Source of the DNA: Lambdavirus PDP110P1
Sequence record: OZ035751.1
Length of the DNA: 48,490 nt
Strand: one strand, 5' to 3'
The number at the start of each line of letters is the position of its first letter. The stretch's first letter is position 1. The translations under genes and the position numbers were made by a program. Of the stretch, positions 20,910-45,127 are shown in pieces. The notes under the pieces are model-generated. The model had not been told where the DNA came from. It worked only from the letters and a program-made list of their open reading frames with translations, and ran no database searches.

Positions 20910-22205
20910 TTGAATAATTCAGCCATACCGTCACGTCTGACGGTTGTCTTTTCTGTGAGCGGCGATAAAAACACGATCCCGGTCAATTCCACCTCTGAAA
21001 CGCTGGCCGACGGCCTGGCGGCTATGGATTCCGGTTTCCCGCCGCTGACCCGTATCGCACTTTCTGCCGGCGGTAAGCCGCCAAAGGGTCAGGACTTTAA
21101 CGGCATTTTTAATGATCTTTACACTCGCCTGCAATGGTCGGATGCCGGGATGGGGTACCCCTTTAACGCAGATTTCAGAACAGCCATTTCAGGCTACCCT
21201 AAAGGTGCGGTGATCCCTTCCAGCGATTACTCGGTGTCGTGGCTCAACACCATTGACTCCAATAACACCGCACCGGAAAAAACCGATGCAACGGCATCTG
21301 GCTGGATGCCTTCATGGGGATGCGGAGCGGCCAGCATTTCAATATCGACGGCTAACGTTAACGCCACCGATCTGCAGGCTGCTAACCCACGGCTAATTCT
21401 CACCGGCGCGCTAACTGGCAACCGGGTCCTTTATCTTCCGCCCTGGGTGAAAGACTGGACCATCGAAAATAACTGCACCGGCAGCGCTTACTACGTTCAG
21501 TTAAGCACCAGGGCAGCGGGCGCAACGGTTGTCAGCAAGCCAGGCACAGTTACTCAAGTCCACTCCGATGGAATCAACGTAACCTCCCTTTCTACGCCTC
21601 ATGGAAACATCGCTTACGCAGTCAACGGGACATATTCGTTCGTCGTGCCTGCAGGGGTGACGCGTATTCGTTACACCGTGACGGGTGCAGGTGGATCGGG
21701 AAGCGGTTGTCAGGCGTCCTCCTCAAGTGAGTCCTATAGCGGTGGCGGGGGCGGGGCTGGAGGCACAGCAATAGGCTGGCTGGATGTTGTTCCGGGAACG
21801 ACCTTGTCAGTTGTTGTGGGCAAAGGCGGTGCAGCGGTTTTAGGTGCCGTATCCGGCAATGACGGTGGTGACTCTTCTTTGGGTGGGATCATCTTCGGTC
21901 GCGGCGGCAAAAAAGCCAACAAGGCCAGCATCGTGAACAGCGCCGGTGGTGATGGTGGTCTTGCATCAGGTGGCGATATCAACATTCAGGGTGGTACCGG
22001 TCAGGACGGCCAGGCAGCGACAAACATGCTTACCGGTTCTGGCGGTGCTTCGTTCTGGGGTGGTGGCGGACGTAGCGGCGCAACCGGCGGTGTGAAAGGG
22101 AAAGCAGCAGGCTCTGGCGGTGGTGGTGCTTACGATATTGATTTCAGCGGAATAGCTTACCCATCCGGCGATGGCGCCGATGGCATTGTGCATATCGAGT
22201 GGTAA
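20910..22205 (+). CDS. tail fibre protein with glycine-rich C-terminal domain
   Basis: 431 aa; TTG start with GGAGG RBS; C-terminal Gly-rich domain paralogous to that of 25986-27017. Confidence 0.55.
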   Translation: MNNSAIPSRLTVVFSVSGDKNTIPVNSTSETLADGLAAMDSGFPPLTRIALSAGGKPPKGQDFNGIFNDLYTRLQWSDAGMGYPFNADFRTAISGYPKGAVIPSSDYSVSWLNTIDSNNTAPEKTDATASGWMPSWGCGAASISISTANVNATDLQAANPRLILTGALTGNRVLYLPPWVKDWTIENNCTGSAYYVQLSTRAAGATVVSKPGTVTQVHSDGINVTSLSTPHGNIAYAVNGTYSFVVPAGVTRIRYTVTGAGGSGSGCQASSSSESYSGGGGGAGGTAIGWLDVVPGTTLSVVVGKGGAAVLGAVSGNDGGDSSLGGIIFGRGGKKANKASIVNSAGGDGGLASGGDINIQGGTGQDGQAATNMLTGSGGASFWGGGGRSGATGGVKGKAAGSGGGGAYDIDFSGIAYPSGDGADGIVHIEW

Positions 22206-22219
22206 TAACAGGAAAAATT

Positions 22220-25030
22220 ATGGCGACTACCGACACACAGCAAACGGCACAGTTCGCGGCAGAGGCTGCTGTTAGTGCCGCAGAGGCGAAGCAGTACTTG
22301 ATCGAGGTCCAGCAGGGCTATCAGGACATAAGCGCCACCACTCAGGAAGCGATTAATGCAGCCACAGCGGCAGAGGCGGCGAAGATCGCCGCAGAAACTG
22401 CTGAGCAAAATTCATCTACTTCGGCCGCAGCCTCATCCGAATCGGCAACGGCAGCCGCAGGTTCAGCAGCACAGGCTGAAGAGTATGCAAATAACGCTTC
22501 TGACTACGCACAGAATAAGTTCACGTTCTATAAGACTGCCAGCGATCCTGATGGCACCATTGCAGGGTTGGCAGCAACTACTGACGGCCAGTCGTTCTGG
22601 GTAGCTCAGGGGCCAGATGCGCTTTCTGCTGCATGGCAGTATCAAAACAATGCTGGCGTGGCCGTATTGCAGGCAAAGCAGCCAGGCACGGCAGCCATAA
22701 CCGGGACAATCCGCGAATTCCCCACGCTGGAGGCGGCACAGGATGATGCCGATGCCGGCAATATTCCTACAGGTTCAACTGCGTATTATCGAAGCGCTGA
22801 CGACGAAACTCTTGCGATTGAGGTTATTAACACTTCAGGAACGCTGCAGCCTACTGGACGAAAAATGCCATCCGCAATGCCAATGGGTTACCAGTCTGCT
22901 ACAGCTGTGAGTAGCGGTGCGGCTAATACCATTGCTATCACTATCCCCGGATTATTAGTGGATGGCAGTTTGATTTATTTCCTGTCTCCTATTTTGAATA
23001 CGGCGGCTGTTAGCGTTACCGTGACAGATGCCAGGGGGAACTCGGTTACTCGGGCAATACAGAAACAAAATAATGCAGCTTTAGTTGGGAATGAGTTGCT
23101 TCTCAATCAGCCCGCACTGATGGAATTCCGCACTGGGACTGCTAACAATTTTGTCCTTGTGGCATCCGGCCCAGTAGCTGCTGAACTTGCGTCAAGAATT
23201 TCCACGCTTGAATTAAATAGCGTAGCGTTATTGTCTGGCGTTGCTAATACTGCGGACGCCTACACCGCGTCAGCGTCAGCGATACCAGGCCTGGTTGCCT
23301 CTGACCGCGTTTTCCTTTTCACTCCGAGTGCGACGAACACGACACGGACGCCGACCTTATCCGTGAATGGCGGCACTGCGCGCCAGATCAAACAGGCGAA
23401 TGGTACCAACGTCGCAGCGGGAGACCTGGTCTCTGGCTACCCTTATTTATTAAAATTCAATTTTGCATCGGCTGACTTTCGTATGCTCACATACCCAGCG
23501 GACCGGACGCGTCTGCTCAGCGGCCAGCAGAAGGCCACCGTAACCAGTGACGCAACAAGCCCGAACGCTATATCTTTAACAATCCCGGGCCTTATCGCGG
23601 ACGGCACACAAATCACATTCGAGCCAGCTGTCACCAATACCGGGGCGGTGACGCTGCTAATCACCAACATGTATGGCGACACCGTGACTCGCACCCTGAT
23701 GAAAGGGGCTAACACTCCTCTCGTCGGTGGTGAACTGAAGTACGCCATGCCGGTTTCTATCATGTTCAGGGGGGCTCCACAGAACAACTTTAAGCTCCTA
23801 TATGCTGGCGACCCTACCACGGATATACAGACCCTATCGAACGACGTTACGACGCTCAAGGGGTCGCTGACAGACCCTTATGCTGCTCTGGCGGATAAAC
23901 TCGTGGGCACCGGGGTATTATCAGACCAGTCACCATTCGGTACTATAACTTGGTCCGCGGGGGTTAAGAGCGTCACTAAGCGGCAGATCATTTGTACGTC
24001 TGTCGGGTCTTCTGTTGGCGTTGGGGCCGGCTCTACTGGCGGTGGTGCGGCAGGTGCCGCTTATGCACCGAACACACTGTTCGTCAACGCCTTGAAGGAA
24101 GAGCTTAAACAGTACGGCGAGTTTGACGTCATCGATGACAACCAGTGCATACCAACTCAGGCGATTCAGCAGTTCGCTGCCCAGCTAGCGAATTCGCCTT
24201 ATTCAACCTCCGACTTTGTTTTGATTGTAGGGGGGATGAATGATGCGCCAGTTGGTAACTTCAACATGGGGCGCACATTCCCCGGTCAACAAACGTCTCT
24301 CGAGTCGCTGGTAGACTTGTGTCTGGCACGAGGAGCGATTCCAATCATTTGCACTACTCCACATCATAATGTGGAAATGTCTCAGACGTACCCCACAATC
24401 CCCGGTGGTAACCCGCTGTTCTGGCCGTTCAGGACATATAATGTCACAAGTACATATGTCTTCGACGCCGTTGCAAATACCATCACGCAGAGTAACTTTG
24501 CTAACCCGAATTATGGCGGCAATATTCTGAAGCCGGGGCATACTCTGCGCGTAGAAAGTGGAGACAATATCGGCAACTATACTATCACGGCCATTTCCTC
24601 TGACCGGAATACCATAACCGTCCAAGAGACAATCCCGGTAAGTGGAAGCTACTCGACAACGGTCAGACACTTTAACCTGCAGTCCATCGCTGAGGATATT
24701 CTTTACCCTGCACCGTCGGTTTCCTTTGTAACAAAAGACTGGTCCGGTAGCGGCGTTAAGGTACAGGGAGATGTGCGGTTCGAAATGGTGAATAATATGC
24801 AAAGGGTCGTCGCACGCAAAAAAGGCGCGTTCCTCGCAGACTGTGAAAAGTCGTTCTTTAAGTATGGTGTAGAGGTTGGTGGTTACTCGTCGGTATATAA
24901 CGTCCCAGCTGGAAACTACAATCACATGAACGATAACGGGTACACAGTAACTTTCGACTACACGCTGAAAGTCGCAGCAAGGAAGATTGCCAATCTCATA
25001 TTCGGAGATAAATATTACTCTGCAGCATAA
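22220..25030 (+). CDS. tail fibre/tailspike with SGNH/GDSL-hydrolase-like domain
   Basis: ~936 aa from ATG 22220; Ala-rich coiled-coil N-terminus typical of fibres; GDSL-like segment (…ICTSVGSSVG…LIVGGMNDA…). Confidence 0.5.
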   Translation: MATTDTQQTAQFAAEAAVSAAEAKQYLIEVQQGYQDISATTQEAINAATAAEAAKIAAETAEQNSSTSAAASSESATAAAGSAAQAEEYANNASDYAQNKFTFYKTASDPDGTIAGLAATTDGQSFWVAQGPDALSAAWQYQNNAGVAVLQAKQPGTAAITGTIREFPTLEAAQDDADAGNIPTGSTAYYRSADDETLAIEVINTSGTLQPTGRKMPSAMPMGYQSATAVSSGAANTIAITIPGLLVDGSLIYFLSPILNTAAVSVTVTDARGNSVTRAIQKQNNAALVGNELLLNQPALMEFRTGTANNFVLVASGPVAAELASRISTLELNSVALLSGVANTADAYTASASAIPGLVASDRVFLFTPSATNTTRTPTLSVNGGTARQIKQANGTNVAAGDLVSGYPYLLKFNFASADFRMLTYPADRTRLLSGQQKATVTSDATSPNAISLTIPGLIADGTQITFEPAVTNTGAVTLLITNMYGDTVTRTLMKGANTPLVGGELKYAMPVSIMFRGAPQNNFKLLYAGDPTTDIQTLSNDVTTLKGSLTDPYAALADKLVGTGVLSDQSPFGTITWSAGVKSVTKRQIICTSVGSSVGVGAGSTGGGAAGAAYAPNTLFVNALKEELKQYGEFDVIDDNQCIPTQAIQQFAAQLANSPYSTSDFVLIVGGMNDAPVGNFNMGRTFPGQQTSLESLVDLCLARGAIPIICTTPHHNVEMSQTYPTIPGGNPLFWPFRTYNVTSTYVFDAVANTITQSNFANPNYGGNILKPGHTLRVESGDNIGNYTITAISSDRNTITVQETIPVSGSYSTTVRHFNLQSIAEDILYPAPSVSFVTKDWSGSGVKVQGDVRFEMVNNMQRVVARKKGAFLADCEKSFFKYGVEVGGYSSVYNVPAGNYNHMNDNGYTVTFDYTLKVAARKIANLIFGDKYYSAA

Positions 25031-25417
25031 GGAATTATCATGGCTTTTAAAATTTCAGCAGTAAAACTGTCCAGATTTATTATCTCGGAGGATTTCTGTG
25101 TGAAAAGGATATCGGTATTGACCTCATTTACTCAGTAGAAAGCGTCAGGCAGGATGATGCAGGTCAAGTTAAAGCCTCAGTATCTGTTCGATATAATGAT
25201 GCGTCCAGAGTTAACGCTGGAGAGTATGCGGTAACTCTGGACACTTCGTCATCAAAACCGTGGACAGAACAGGCTGAGCAGCAACTTATGCAAGCTGAAG
25301 AGTTTGCTGGGGCAGTTGTCCTGTAACCACAAAAAAAACCTACGCAGACTGAACTGGGTTGACTGCCCTCCGATAAAACTACTGTATATAACAACAGTGT
25401 TTATCGGAGGGCAGATC

Positions 25418-25657
25418 ATGCTTCGACAGTCAGACATCGCCGCGGCTTTCCGCGAGTCCATTTTGCGCAGTTCCAAGGGGTTCCAGTACCTCCACACCCG
25501 CGACTTCGTTACCGCGCTTCGCCGGCGTGGCATCCATTTTTCCGAGGTGGAGGCGAACTCCTGGATCGCACGCGAGCAGACGTATTTCGTCGATAAGACG
25601 CCGGACCATAGCGAAAACAGGCTGTGGATGATGGCCAACATGGGGAGGGTGATCTAA
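25418..25657 (+). CDS. hypothetical protein
   Basis: 79 aa from ATG 25418; its RBS GGAGG lies in the 3' arm of a 15-bp perfect hairpin. Confidence 0.4.
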   Translation: MLRQSDIAAAFRESILRSSKGFQYLHTRDFVTALRRRGIHFSEVEANSWIAREQTYFVDKTPDHSENRLWMMANMGRVI

Positions 25658-25974
25658 TGGGATTCCCTTCACCAGCGACGGACTACGTTGAGCAAAGGTT
25701 GTCTGTTAACTCGATCTGCAATGTCGGCCCAAACACGCTAGTTTTCGAGCGATCTGGCGGTTACGTTGTGCTGGATATCTCCCTGAAGCCAAAGCAGGGT
25801 AGTCAGGTTCTTATCCAGCACGGCGGCGGGACGGAGCTTGCCACGCTGAGAGGAAAGTCACTGATTACTGAAGATGGTGAAGCGATCGAGGGCGAAGCCC
25901 TGGACGATGTTACTGTCATCGGCGTCGTGACGTTTACTATCTGCGATGTTCGTTCCGATAATTCTATTATTTAA
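25657..25974 (+). CDS. hypothetical protein
   Basis: 105 aa; RBS GGGGAGGG; TAATG overlap with upstream gene; directly upstream of third tail fibre. Confidence 0.4.
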   Translation: MGFPSPATDYVEQRLSVNSICNVGPNTLVFERSGGYVVLDISLKPKQGSQVLIQHGGGTELATLRGKSLITEDGEAIEGEALDDVTVIGVVTFTICDVRSDNSII

Positions 25975-25985
25975 CTGGGGTATAT

Positions 25986-27017
25986 ATGGCGCTGAAGCTA
26001 TTAGCCAATAATAACGCAAAGAGTGTTCTCGCTGCGGGTATTAGCGCGTCCGCTACCGTTATTACCGTGGGTACTGGAGCTGGGTCTTTATTCCCGTCCC
26101 CTGTATCTGGGCAGAGTTATTTCAAATTAACGATAACCGACGCGGCCACGAAAACAATTTCTGAAATTATGCACGTCACGTCTGTATCCGGTGACGTGAT
26201 GACAGTAATTCGTGGTCAGGAAGGAACTACGGCACGCGTATGGTCAACGAATGACATTGTCGCGAATTTAATGACCGCCGGATCATTGTTGTCGTTCCTG
26301 CAGATCAGCAATAACCTGTCAGAAATTAAAGATGCCGGTGAGGATGCGATAAATGAAGCCCGTTATAACCTCGGAATATCTGATTCCTCTGGTTTTGTCG
26401 GGCGTTCACTTGGCGCTCCAAAAGCTTTCTATGCAAACGGAACCTATACGCGATCTCCTCTGGCCCGTTATGCAAAAGTAACGTTGACCGGTGCCGGTGG
26501 CGGCGGTGGCGGCTGCCAGGCCTCCAACAATACAGAAACCTTCTCCGGTGCTGGCGGCGGCGCGGGCGCGACCATTATCGTATGGGTTGACCTGTCTGCT
26601 GCCAGTTCTTATGCGATTACTGTCGGCAAGGGTGGTAAGGGCGGAGTTGGCGCAGTAAGTGGTGCGGATGGTGGGGCCACCTCGTTTGCCAGCCTGTTCT
26701 CAGCTCCTGGCGGGAAAGGAGGAGTGAAGTCAGGCGTGTCCAATACCGCCGGCGGCGCCGGAGGTACGGCGGCGACCGGAGATATCAGGATCAACGGTGG
26801 TACCGGCTCAGATGGACAGACAGGCTCAAGCCTTCTGACGGGCAACGGCGGGGCGTCGTATTTTGGCGGCGGTGGCCGGGCGGGTTCTCAGGCCGGTATT
26901 GCTGGCGCAGCTCCCGGATCCGGTGGTGGTGGCGCGTATGACCTTGGGTTTACCGGTACGGCATTTACCGGTGGTGATGGTGCTACTGGCATGGCGATCG
27001 TGGAAGAATTCGCGTAA
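25986..27017 (+). CDS. tail fibre protein with glycine-rich C-terminal domain
   Basis: 343 aa; C-terminal ~170 aa paralogous to C-terminus of 20910-22205. Confidence 0.55.
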   Translation: MALKLLANNNAKSVLAAGISASATVITVGTGAGSLFPSPVSGQSYFKLTITDAATKTISEIMHVTSVSGDVMTVIRGQEGTTARVWSTNDIVANLMTAGSLLSFLQISNNLSEIKDAGEDAINEARYNLGISDSSGFVGRSLGAPKAFYANGTYTRSPLARYAKVTLTGAGGGGGGCQASNNTETFSGAGGGAGATIIVWVDLSAASSYAITVGKGGKGGVGAVSGADGGATSFASLFSAPGGKGGVKSGVSNTAGGAGGTAATGDIRINGGTGSDGQTGSSLLTGNGGASYFGGGGRAGSQAGIAGAAPGSGGGGAYDLGFTGTAFTGGDGATGMAIVEEFA

Positions 27018-27159
27018 TGGCTTACACTCCTGCACGACCATCGATGTAATCAGCCCACCACTGCATCATCTACCTGCGCTTATCGAGATACTGAGCATGG
27101 TTGTAAATTCAACTAACCCAGTGCATTGACAAAAAATTAGCGCAAGAAGACAAAAAATC

Positions 27160-27420
27160 ACCTTGCGCTAATGCTCTGTTACAGGTCACTAATACCATCT
27201 AAGTGGTTGATTCATAGTGACTGGATATGTTGTGTTTTGTAGTATTATGCAGTCTATTATTTAGACTAAATCTTTCATAACATATTGATATTTACAGTGT
27301 TTTCTGTTTATTGTTCAGCTTTTTTATACTAAGTTGGCATTATAAAAAAGCATTGCTTATCAATTTGTTGCAACGAACAGGTCACTATCAGTCAAAATAA
27401 AATCATTATTTGATTTCAAT
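27160..27420. other. attP: attP (lambda-type; core 27318-27332)
   Basis: lambda core GCTTTTTTATACTAA with flanking lambda arm sequence (…ACAGGTCACTA…), adjacent to int. Confidence 0.85.
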
Positions 27421-28476
27421 TTTGTCCCACTCCCTGCCTCTGTCATCACGATACTGTGATGCCATGGTGTCCGACTTATGCCCGAGAAGATGTTGAGCAA
27501 ATTTATCGCTTATCTGCTTCTCATAGAGTCTTGCAGACAAACTGCGCAACTCGTGAAAGGTTGGCGGATCCCCTTCGAAGGAGAGACCTGATGCTTTTCG
27601 TGCGCGCATAAAATACCTTGATACTGTGCCGGATGAAAGCGGTTCACGACGAGTAGATGCAATTATGGTTTCTCCGCCAAGAATCTTTTTGCATTTATCA
27701 AGTGTTTCCTTCATTGATATCCCGAGAGCATCAACATGCAATGTTGTTGGGATAGCAATTTTTACGCCTGTTTTGCTTTGCTCGACATAAAGATATCCAT
27801 CTACGATATCAGACCACTTCATTTCGCATAAATCACCAACTCGCTGCCCGGTAACAACAGCCAGTTCCATTGCAAGTCTAAGCCAACATGGTGATGATTC
27901 TGCTGCTTGATAAATTTTCAGGTATTCGTCAGCCGTAAGTCTTGATCTCCTTACCTCTGATTTTGCAGCGCGAGTGGCTGCGACCGGGTTTGTTGTTATA
28001 TGGCCTTCAGCTATAGCCTCTCGGAATGCATCGCTCAGTGTTGATCTGATTAACTTGGCTGATGCCGCCTTGCCCTCGTCTATGTATCCATTGAGCATTG
28101 CCGCAATTTCTTTTGTGGTGATGTCTTCAAGTGGAGCATCAGGCAGACCCCTCCTTATTGCTTTAATTTTGCTCATGTAATTTATGAGTGTCTTCTGCTT
28201 GATTCCTCTGCTGGCCAGGATTTTTTCGTAGCGATCAAGCCATGAATGTAACGTAACGGAATTATCACTGTTGATTCTCGCTGTCAGAGGCTTGTGTTTG
28301 TGTCCTGAAAATAACTCAATGTTGGCCTGTATAGCTTCAGTGATTGCGATTCGCCTGTCTCGGCCTAATCCAAACTCTTTACCCGTCCTTGGGTCCCTGT
28401 AGCAGTAATATCCATTGTTTCTTATATAAAGGTTAGGTGGTAAATCCCGGCGCTCATGACTTCGCCTTCTTCCCAT
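27406..28476 (-). CDS. int: integrase (lambda Int, tyrosine recombinase)
   Basis: 356-aa protein MGRRRSHERRDLPPNLYIRNNGYYCYRDPRTGKEF…, recognised as lambda Int. Confidence 0.95.
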   Translation of the reverse strand: MGRRRSHERRDLPPNLYIRNNGYYCYRDPRTGKEFGLGRDRRIAITEAIQANIELFSGHKHKPLTARINSDNSVTLHSWLDRYEKILASRGIKQKTLINYMSKIKAIRRGLPDAPLEDITTKEIAAMLNGYIDEGKAASAKLIRSTLSDAFREAIAEGHITTNPVAATRAAKSEVRRSRLTADEYLKIYQAAESSPCWLRLAMELAVVTGQRVGDLCEMKWSDIVDGYLYVEQSKTGVKIAIPTTLHVDALGISMKETLDKCKKILGGETIIASTRREPLSSGTVSRYFMRARKASGLSFEGDPPTFHELRSLSARLYEKQISDKFAQHLLGHKSDTMASQYRDDRGREWDKIEIK

Positions 28477-38081: not shown

Positions 38082-38726
38082 TTAACCAAACGTCTCTTCA
38101 GGCCACTGGCTGGCGATAACTTTCCCCACAACGGAACAACTCTCATTGCATGGGATCATTGGGTACTGTGGGTTTAGTGGTTGTAAAAACACCTGACCGC
38201 TATCCCTGATCAGTTTCTTGAAGGTAAACTCATCACCCCCAAGTCTGGCTATGCAGAAATCACCTGGCTCAACAGCCTGCTCAGGGTCAACCAGAATTAA
38301 CATCCCGTCAGGAAAACTAGGTTTGGATCCTGTTGGCGCGGTCATGGAATTACCTTCAACCTCAAGCCAGAAAGCTTTTTCGCTGGCTTTTGTGGTCGTT
38401 GGGACCCATGCCTTTGCATCGCTGGCTGTGTAGCTTCCCACCTCCGAAAATGGCCCGGCCTGCACTGAAGAAAATAACGGGTATTCATATTGGCGAAATA
38501 CGGCGTCTGAATCCTCGCCAAACATTATTTTTGCCGGAGATACGCCGAGTGCCGCCCCAAGAACCAGCGCGTCATCCGCGCTAACCTTTCTTGTTCCTAA
38601 CTCGTAGTTCCCCAGGCGTGAAGGCGCAGCCCAGCCGCAAAGCTTGGCCAATTGAGCCTGGCTAAGTCCTTTAGCTTCTCTAAGGGACTTGATCCTTTCC
38701 CCGATAATTTCATGCATCGTTTTCAT
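38082..38726 (-). CDS. cI: CI-type repressor (HTH plus LexA-like S24 peptidase domain)
   Basis: 214 aa; N-terminal HTH (…[24 protein letters not shown]…), C-terminal autocleavage domain; divergent from cro across operators. Confidence 0.85.
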
Positions 38727-43969: not shown

Positions 43970-44618
43970 TGGCAGCAAATACCGAAATATTTGGGTAGTT
44001 GGCGATCTGCACGGATGCTACACGAAACTGATGAAAAAACTGGAGACGATAGGATTCGACACCAAAAAAGACCTGCTTATCTCGGTTGGCGATTTGGTTG
44101 ATCGCGGTACAGAGAACGTCGAATGCCTGGAATTAATCACATTCCCCTTTTTCAGAGCTGTACGTGGAAACCATGAGCAAATGATGATTGATGGCTTATC
44201 AGAGCGTGGAAACGTCAATCACTGGCTGTTTAATGGCGGTGGCTGGTTCTTTAATCTCGATTACGACAAAGAAATTCTGGCTAAAGCTCTTGCCCATAAA
44301 GCAGATGAACTTCCGTTAATCATTGAACTGGTGAGTAAAGGTAAAAAATATGTCATCTGCCACGCCGATTATCCTTGTGACGAATACGAATTTGGAAAGC
44401 CAGTTGATTATCAGCAGGTAATCTGGAACCGCGAACGAATCAGCAACTCACAAGACGGGGTCGTGAAAGAAATCAAAGGCGCGGACACGTTCATCTTTGG
44501 TCATACGCCAGCAGTGAAACCACTCAAATTTGCCAACCAGATGTATATCGATACTGGGGCAGTGTTCTGCGGAAATCTCACATTGATTCAGGTACAGGGA
44601 GAAGGCGCATGGGAATAA
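43947..44618 (+). CDS. ninI: Ser/Thr protein phosphatase (NinI)
   Basis: 223 aa from MRYYEKIDG; calcineurin-like motifs GDLHG, GDLVDRG, GNHE. Confidence 0.85.
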
Positions 44619-45127
44619 GAGAATTAAACCTCACCAAAGAGCAGCACGAGTGGCTGAATGGCTGGCTTGAACTGTGGGGGGCATGGGTTTATTCAGGTCG
44701 TCTGGAAAAGCGCATGAGCAGCGTAATAGCTAAGTTCATGGAGAGCGTAGAGCCGGGAAGAGTTATGACAAGGCCAATGTGTAATGATGATGATGGAATG
44801 TTGATTTCTCAGGTCGTCGATTCCGTCATGTACATTGACAAGAAAGCCTTTGGCATCCTCCTCAGCTACTACGCTCATGGTTCATCTAAGCGAGCAATTG
44901 CATCCTACTATCACGCGACTGCAAAGCCACGCAAGATGTGTGGACGTGGTGGCGAGGGATGGAGAAAACCTTCACTGGCAACCTGTAGAAACGAAATTGA
45001 CGACATCCTGAAAGCGTCGTTATTTGTTTTGTACCAACCAATGCAAAATGCTTTCAAAATGCGTAAACGTGTTGAGAAAGTTAAGCATGTTGCTGTTAAA
45101 AGCCTTGACATGCAATTAGCCATTTAG
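44609..45127 (+). CDS. late antiterminator Q-like protein (non-lambda type)
   Basis: 172 aa, unlike lambda Q; sits between ninI and the lysis genes; Cys-rich; a strong promoter lies in its 3' end followed by an early terminator. Confidence 0.5.

Follow-up and report, generated by a model that had tools for sequence, protein, structure and literature searches.

The window, by which we mean the entire 48,490-nucleotide stretch of Lambdavirus PDP110P1 (OZ035751.1), belongs to a lambdoid temperate phage. Its part from 25000 to 26000 is 100% identical to Wanchaivirus PDP110P2 and has close kin among many Klebsiella prophages. Structural and late genes occupy the + strand from 30 to 27017, and all late genes are on this strand. 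Integrase (27406-28476) and the CI repressor, which has HTH and Peptidase_S24 domains (38082-38726), are encoded on the - strand, and the Q antiterminator gene lies at 44609-45127. The region of interest starts just after the gene for a 943-aa tail-fibre/tail-spike protein (22199-25030). Part of this protein resembles GDSL/SGNH-type esterases (PF13472, below the cut-off with an E of 1e-05), a match that hints at a receptor-modifying deacetylase/esterase domain. A small co-directional gene follows (25040..25326, +), the last ORF before the hairpin that is our subject, and it is frameshifted in this phage. The sister loci L032 and L066 have it whole, as a 95-aa gene; in the window and in locus L018 one A has been lost from an A5 run at about 25065-25068, so that it could be a pseudogene or contain a slippage site, unless the loss is an error of sequencing. 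An imperfect inverted repeat (25193-25252, 15-nt core at 93%) lies inside the frameshifted ORF. A terminator scan reported no terminator-like site between the tail-fibre gene or this ORF and the hairpin. Downstream of the hairpin and of the two-gene cassette that it precedes is a glycine-rich, tail-fibre-like gene (25986..27017, +; PF21722; phrog_863). Late transcripts must run through the hairpin to reach this gene, if it relies on them for its expression. A second imperfect inverted repeat (27129-27179, 18-nt arms at 83%), between the tail-fibre-like gene and int, is possibly a terminator or part of attP.

The first gene of the cassette (25418..25657, +) encodes a 79-aa protein of phrog_3893 (function unknown), which has homologues in phages of Klebsiella, E. 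coli, Enterobacter and Erwinia and gave no match in Pfam, NCBIfam or PDB sequence searches. Its stop overlaps (TAATG) the start of the second gene (25657..25974, +), whose 105-aa product is UmuD'/HumD-like. In fact, the N-terminus of this product, MGFPSPATDYVEQR (MGFPSPA), is that of processed UmuD', the GFPSPA.DYVEQR motif of UmuD' is present, and the match to phrog_3469 ('UmuD-like') extends over the full length with an E of 1.5e-46. UmuD' in the PDB aligns over residues 2-43 only, the position of the catalytic Ser60 is a Val, and a Pfam search found no S24 match. Phage-borne UmuD'-like genes are also known from P1, whose humD is LexA-controlled, and from the DinI-UmuD' modules of N15 and phiKO2; the annotations of mEp390 and HK140 cite similarity to P1 HumD and to phiKO2 gp22/gp23. 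With the NCBIfam HumD model, the window protein reaches 48 bits, short of the cut-off of 120, and unlike the DinI-UmuD' modules, window-type loci have no dinI partner. The cassette is found in 209 of 5426 complete E. coli genomes and in many Klebsiella prophages, and its UmuD'-like protein could influence SOS mutagenesis in clinical strains. We also considered the 79-aa protein as an antirepressor, like those of Gifsy or Tum of phage 186. This idea was rejected because CI, with its Peptidase_S24 domain, is self-cleaving, so that no such module is needed; in Gifsy, moreover, the LexA sites have another location, beside dinI and close to the replication genes (PMC3121763).

Between the upstream gene and the cassette, CTGCCCTCCGATAAA (25363-25377, +) and TTTATCGGAGGGCAG (25400-25414, +) are 100% complementary and, as an earlier note on this DNA had claimed, form a perfect 15-bp stem around a 22-nt loop. 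The 3' arm carries the Shine-Dalgarno (SD) GGAGG (25406-25410), 7 nt before the ATG (25418) of the 79-aa ORF, which is where the same note had placed it, and the 5' arm carries the anti-SD CCCTCC. No other perfect inverted repeat of at least 15 nt with a short loop exists in the 48.5-kb window, and the chance expectation for such repeats is about 0.002 by a rough calculation. Folding calculations agree with this picture: the RNA from 25340 to 25440 is predicted at -44 kcal/mol (z = -7.1), and none of 200 shuffles is as stable. The stem with its 15-bp core comes to about -37 kcal/mol at 37 °C. Further pairs lengthen the core on its flanks and on its inner side, where a stem formed by the SOS box described below adds 6 bp. 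In temperature-series folding, at least 99.8% of the SD is predicted to be paired from 25 to 80 °C. The stem was also considered as an intrinsic terminator and rejected: what follows it is AUCAUGCUUCG and no U-tract, its loop has 22 nt where a terminator has a short one, and the terminator scan did not report it. On the - strand, a T8 run lies 24 nt beyond the stem.

The loop, which had escaped the earlier reading, holds a LexA SOS box. The operator TACTGTATATAACAACAGTG (25380..25399, +) matches 16 of the 20 positions of the LexA consensus, TACTG(TA)5CAGTA (PMC6590174), and 18 of 20 in the E. coli umuDC box; within it, CTGTATATAACAACAG (25382-25397) is the sole CTGT-N8-ACAG in the window. The first six bases of the box, TACTGT (25380-25385, +), double as a -10-like hexamer, and a -35-like hexamer, TTGACT (25359..25364, +), sits at the outer edge of the hairpin, where relatives have TTGATC, as do E. 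coli umuDC and sulA. To follow this arrangement, 14 annotated phage relatives and 80 IMG/VR loci were collected, which gave 65 unique box-bearing upstream regions; a genome-contig scan gave 2 loci only. In 63 of these 65 regions we found TTGAnn, 17 nt, TACTGT and then the SOS box, with about 22 nt from box to ATG. The window and L018 have a spacer of 15 nt, not 17, which is atypical for a working promoter. The loop is thus, as its motifs would have it, almost certainly a LexA operator with its promoter.

The relatives' consensus box, TACTGTATATAAAAACAGTA, is identical to the operator of E. coli K-12 umuDC, and the umuDC region, TTGATC-17-TACTGTATATAAAAACAGTA...GGCAGAT..ATG, aligns with the phage regions along ATTGATAGCC...TTGATCTGC-spacer-TACTGT-box...GGCAGAT..ATG. 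The relatives therefore share with umuDC the hexamers and their spacing (TTGATC-17-TACTGT, which is also that of sulA), the box, the ATTGATAGCC block and a GCAGAT just before the ATG, and in both cases the first conserved gene product is UmuD-related. Sequence comparison establishes the candidate phage promoter/operator as a homologue of that of E. coli umuDC. There are differences too. The window has TTGACT and a 15-nt spacer, unlike umuDC and sulA; the phage cassette has the 79-aa gene interposed and no umuC; its UmuD homologue is short, pre-processed (UmuD'-like) and devoid of the catalytic Ser; and pairing between spacer and SD is much stronger (-30 kcal/mol in the window and -17 on average in the phages versus -13 in umuDC). 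With its heterology index of 2.77, the umuDC box ranks among the tightest LexA sites (PMC2994835), and a synthetic fragment of 47 bp works as an SOS-inducible promoter although it contains only a -35, the umuDC spacer and the box (PMC9074414).

Two smaller features accompany the shared promoter. The ATTGATAGCC block lies about 21 bp upstream of the -35 ATTGATC in many phage cassettes as well as in E. coli umuDC (L098, 185-215), so that block and -35 make two ATTGAT repeats roughly two helical turns apart. In most window-type relatives, moreover, the operator lies between a pair of Dam GATC sites, of which that in the outer 5' arm (GATCTGC) belongs to the -35 TTGATC and that in the outer 3' arm (GCAGATC) to AGATCATG at the start codon. 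The window is without the -35 site (TTGACT).

The position of this promoter changes the meaning of the hairpin. With the -10 in the loop, transcription would start at about 25391-25394, inside the loop, and the 5' arm is promoter spacer. The cassette's own SOS-induced mRNA should thus hold the 3' arm only, and only RNA entering from upstream would include the 5' arm as well. For the window, opening the SD is predicted to cost 25.6 kcal/mol in read-through RNA and 6.0 in loop-initiated RNA. The earlier note had proposed a translational switch, be it an RNA thermometer, a structure that a protein or ligand opens, or one dependent on upstream translation. Such a switch would have both arms in the gene's own 5' UTR. 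Part of this stands: the stem is very stable, the SD is in its 3' arm and, if both arms are on one RNA, it is fully sequestered. The kinds of switch that had been proposed find no support. The hairpin occludes a Shine-Dalgarno as RNA thermometers such as ROSE and fourU do, but thermometers are weak, mismatched stems that melt at 37-42 °C, whereas this one has a perfect 15-bp core and is predicted to be fully paired from 25 to 80 °C. Upstream translation is a poor candidate, given that 37 nt separate the stem from the end of the upstream ORF at 25326, a gap across which a terminating ribosome would not melt it. As for an opening ligand or protein, no Rfam family was found at threshold, the hits being sub-threshold chance matches such as a miRNA model with 21 bits against a gathering score of 60. 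The 5' arm is also highly variable among loci whose proteins are about 77% or more identical, which argues against a sequence-specific site for a ligand or protein. Finally, the conserved -35/17/-10 arrangement places the 5' arm in the promoter spacer, and a consensus scan found no promoter-like site upstream on the + strand. A switch within the gene's own leader thus appears improbable.

To explain these results we propose that the hairpin sorts transcripts by their start point, with no sensor operating within any one transcript. The hairpin region would be the control region of an SOS cassette, made of the 79-aa and UmuD'/HumD-like genes, that ends the late operon of a lambdoid Klebsiella/E. 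coli prophage. Once LexA is cleaved, RNA polymerase would start in the loop, at the site suggested above, and the resulting mRNA, lacking the 5' arm, would leave its Shine-Dalgarno comparatively accessible. Late transcripts antiterminated by Q would carry both arms, and the stem would bury the Shine-Dalgarno, so that the 79-aa gene and the umuD'-like gene translationally coupled to it would stay untranslated on late mRNA. Such transcripts should indeed cross the hairpin, since Q is present, there is no terminator upstream and a tail-fibre-like gene lies beyond the cassette. Most likely, then, the hairpin silences the 79-aa gene only on read-through late transcripts and spares the damage-induced mRNA.

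A similar logic is familiar from mobile elements. In IS10 and IS50, the 5' arm of a fold-back structure lies upstream of the transposase gene's own start and the 3' arm lies over the ribosome-binding site, so that read-through alone is silenced; this protection of the transposase against external transcription was reportedly described by Davis, Simons and Kleckner in 1985 and by Krebs and Reznikoff in 1986. The phage hairpin likewise covers the SD with its 3' arm, its 5' arm would lie upstream of the start predicted from homology, and co-directional transcription can enter the cassette from outside, with late genes on the + strand, a Q protein and no terminator upstream. Unlike these elements, the phage structure protects an SOS cassette, not an insertion sequence, and the promoter in its loop would be under LexA control. 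IS200 offers a different solution, in which the SD is sequestered within the element's own 5' UTR and a terminator adds protection against impinging transcription (PMC4513863), whereas the 5' arm of the phage cassette would, from the likely start, lie in the promoter spacer and not in the cassette's own 5' UTR.

If the fold-back serves as insulation, it should not be peculiar to one phage. Among 67 unique variants, the duplex between a 5' segment (the -35 plus spacer) and a 3' segment (the SD to the ATG) averages -17.4 kcal/mol, versus -9.3 when the spacers are shuffled, and 84% of the 67 reach p <= 0.05 despite widely differing spacers. The window's duplex, at -30.4 kcal/mol, is the extreme among them; its perfect 15-bp version is the extreme of a family-wide tendency. 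At least three of the four SD bases are paired in 47 of 65 variants. Opening the SD is predicted to cost 12.6 kcal/mol on average in read-through RNA, as against 5.3 when the RNA starts in the loop, and in 55 of 64 variants read-through RNA is the costlier by more than 3 kcal/mol; loop-initiated mRNA would still have to pay 5-6 kcal/mol. We lean towards the view that the fold-back is a selected insulator against read-through.

Tests that look for matched change in the two arms speak less clearly. Column-wise covariation was absent (0.665 permuted versus 0.660 observed, in a gap-free subset at fixed register) because the 3' arm is almost invariant. Variants pair better with their own arms (-17.09) than with arms swapped between variants (-15.97; 0 of 5000 permutations as low), and yet swapping the non-majority 3' arms gave -16.7 for own arms and -16.9 for swapped ones, which leaves the outcome mixed. 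Pairing is slightly better on the + strand than on the - strand, with about twice as many G-U pairs, an excess that may reflect only the T-rich spacers. Given the covariation and swap results, compensatory evolution is not claimed as proof, and since the relatives' sequences are phylogenetically non-independent, the case for selection rests mainly on the shuffle tests and on one phylogeny-confounded contrast between clades.

These mixed results bring forward the main rival explanation, a neutral quasipalindrome: pairing would have been inherited in part from umuDC (GATCTGC / GCAGAT) and sharpened now and then by intrastrand template switching, in which one arm serves as the copy for the other. 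The promoter would then work under LexA just as that of umuDC does, and the hairpin would be a by-product with no regulatory role. The E. coli umuDC region is in fact partly paired (-13.2, p = 0.016), while sulA is not, and we know of no co-directional gene upstream of chromosomal umuDC that would create an obvious need for insulation. Part of the stem may thus be inherited rather than selected for insulation. The window itself lends this idea its best example. Loci L032 and L066 share its flanks and have an imperfect 17-nt spacer, CCTTCCCTCTCAATAAA, from which the window differs by two deletions and two substitutions within 13 nt. All four changes create complementarity to the 3' arm, and their clustering in this direction is the signature of quasipalindrome-templated mutation. 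The perfect stem is probably the product of such a recent change, which took the spacer from 17 to 15 nt. The same changes removed the GATC from the window's -35, and with a shortened spacer and an altered -35 the cassette's own promoter may be weakened in this phage. Templated mutation can account for the origin of the perfect stem but not for the persistence of pairing across the clade. The spacers are near-saturated with changes, and 84% of them nevertheless beat their own shuffles; five loci (L003, L036, L096, L019 and LAU1) show coordinated changes in both arms; and a clade that has the same promoter in a dinI context, to which we now turn, shows no pairing at all. With these points in hand we regard a purely neutral origin as unlikely.

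This sister clade comprises HK225, mEp390, HK140, Eeyore and 80 IMG/VR loci, and its protein is about 50% identical to that of the window type. It has the same TTGATC-17-TACTGT and the same box, but no fold-back: duplex energies average -6.3 kcal/mol versus -6.4 after shuffling, and 4% of 54 unique variants have p <= 0.05. What differs is the neighbourhood. A divergent dinI homologue lies immediately upstream in 73 of the 80 HK225-type loci, as determined by a dinI homology search that replaced a noisy ORF-based call of upstream orientation, and in none of 80 window-type loci. All 11 annotated window-type loci have co-directional genes upstream. Two loci, LAU1 and L175, encode an HK225-like protein, with no dinI and a umuDC-like 3' region, and in both the fold-back is strong (-20.8 and -23.8, respectively); where the window type has a C-G pair, a compensatory change has made it A-U. 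The fold-back thus tracks contexts in which co-directional transcription can enter the cassette, a link that comes from a small number of independent comparisons. In HK225-type loci (L101-L104, L109-L188), dinI lies about 50-350 nt upstream of the 79-aa gene across a shared intergenic region with the LexA box, an arrangement of dinI and umuD' that looks like a bidirectional SOS unit.

The variation among relatives also bears on two explanations that leave translation aside. The stem could be an RNase III site or an exonuclease barrier that separates the decay of adjoining segments, in late (+) or leftward (-) transcripts. It is long and nearly perfect and can form on either strand, and lambdoid phages do use processing sites of this kind (lambda sib). 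In most relatives, however, the stem is interrupted and of some 8-12 pairs, a poor RNase III substrate; the hairpin is 2 kb from int, which is not the position of sib; and what is consistently paired is the SD, which points to translation. A role in processing or stability is accordingly quite improbable. Even less credible is an element acting as DNA, whether the arms bind a dimeric protein on either side of the LexA box or promoter activity is modulated by a cruciform. The arms do lie symmetrically about a palindromic operator and, in this phage, are perfect as DNA, but arm sequence is not conserved among relatives with the same proteins, and pairing often relies on T-G, a mismatch in DNA. 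A 22-nt spacer, in addition, disfavours cruciform extrusion.

Putting insulation and mutation together, we tentatively envision a mobile, self-insulating SOS cassette, whose fold-back is kept by selection, renewed by templated mutation and lost where a divergent dinI shields the cassette; we would place this fuller scenario just short of probable. If it is true, the architecture has been kept across many prophages of Klebsiella, E. coli and Enterobacter, and it allows a phage 'moron' to stay under pure LexA control within a strongly transcribed, antiterminated late operon. Silencing by transcript origin, known from insertion sequences, would then extend to the cargo genes of prophages. For annotation, the gene pair should be described as LexA-regulated, and the hairpin should not be called a thermosensor or riboswitch.

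The operator may also be a target for other elements. In L100 (MK448228.1), a group II intron (about 780-2680, - strand; Rfam RF02005, 183.5 bits, with an RT ORF) is inserted exactly after the ...ACAGT of the SOS box, with the junctions AAAACAGT|GTGCGCC and CGCGAC|ATTTATCGGAGG, and the same insertion is found in L007, L009, L017, L030, L053, L068, L074 and L108. L042 and L047 carry the intron in the opposite orientation, and there the same end of it adjoins, on the opposite strand, the other box half. It thus seems to use the palindromic LexA operator as a homing site in both directions. In four further loci (L120, L152, L161 and L168), just upstream of the 79-aa gene, unrelated sequence ending ...GGGAAGACCC|ATAT... 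takes the place of the left half of the box, a sign that some other element has gone into the operator at its centre.
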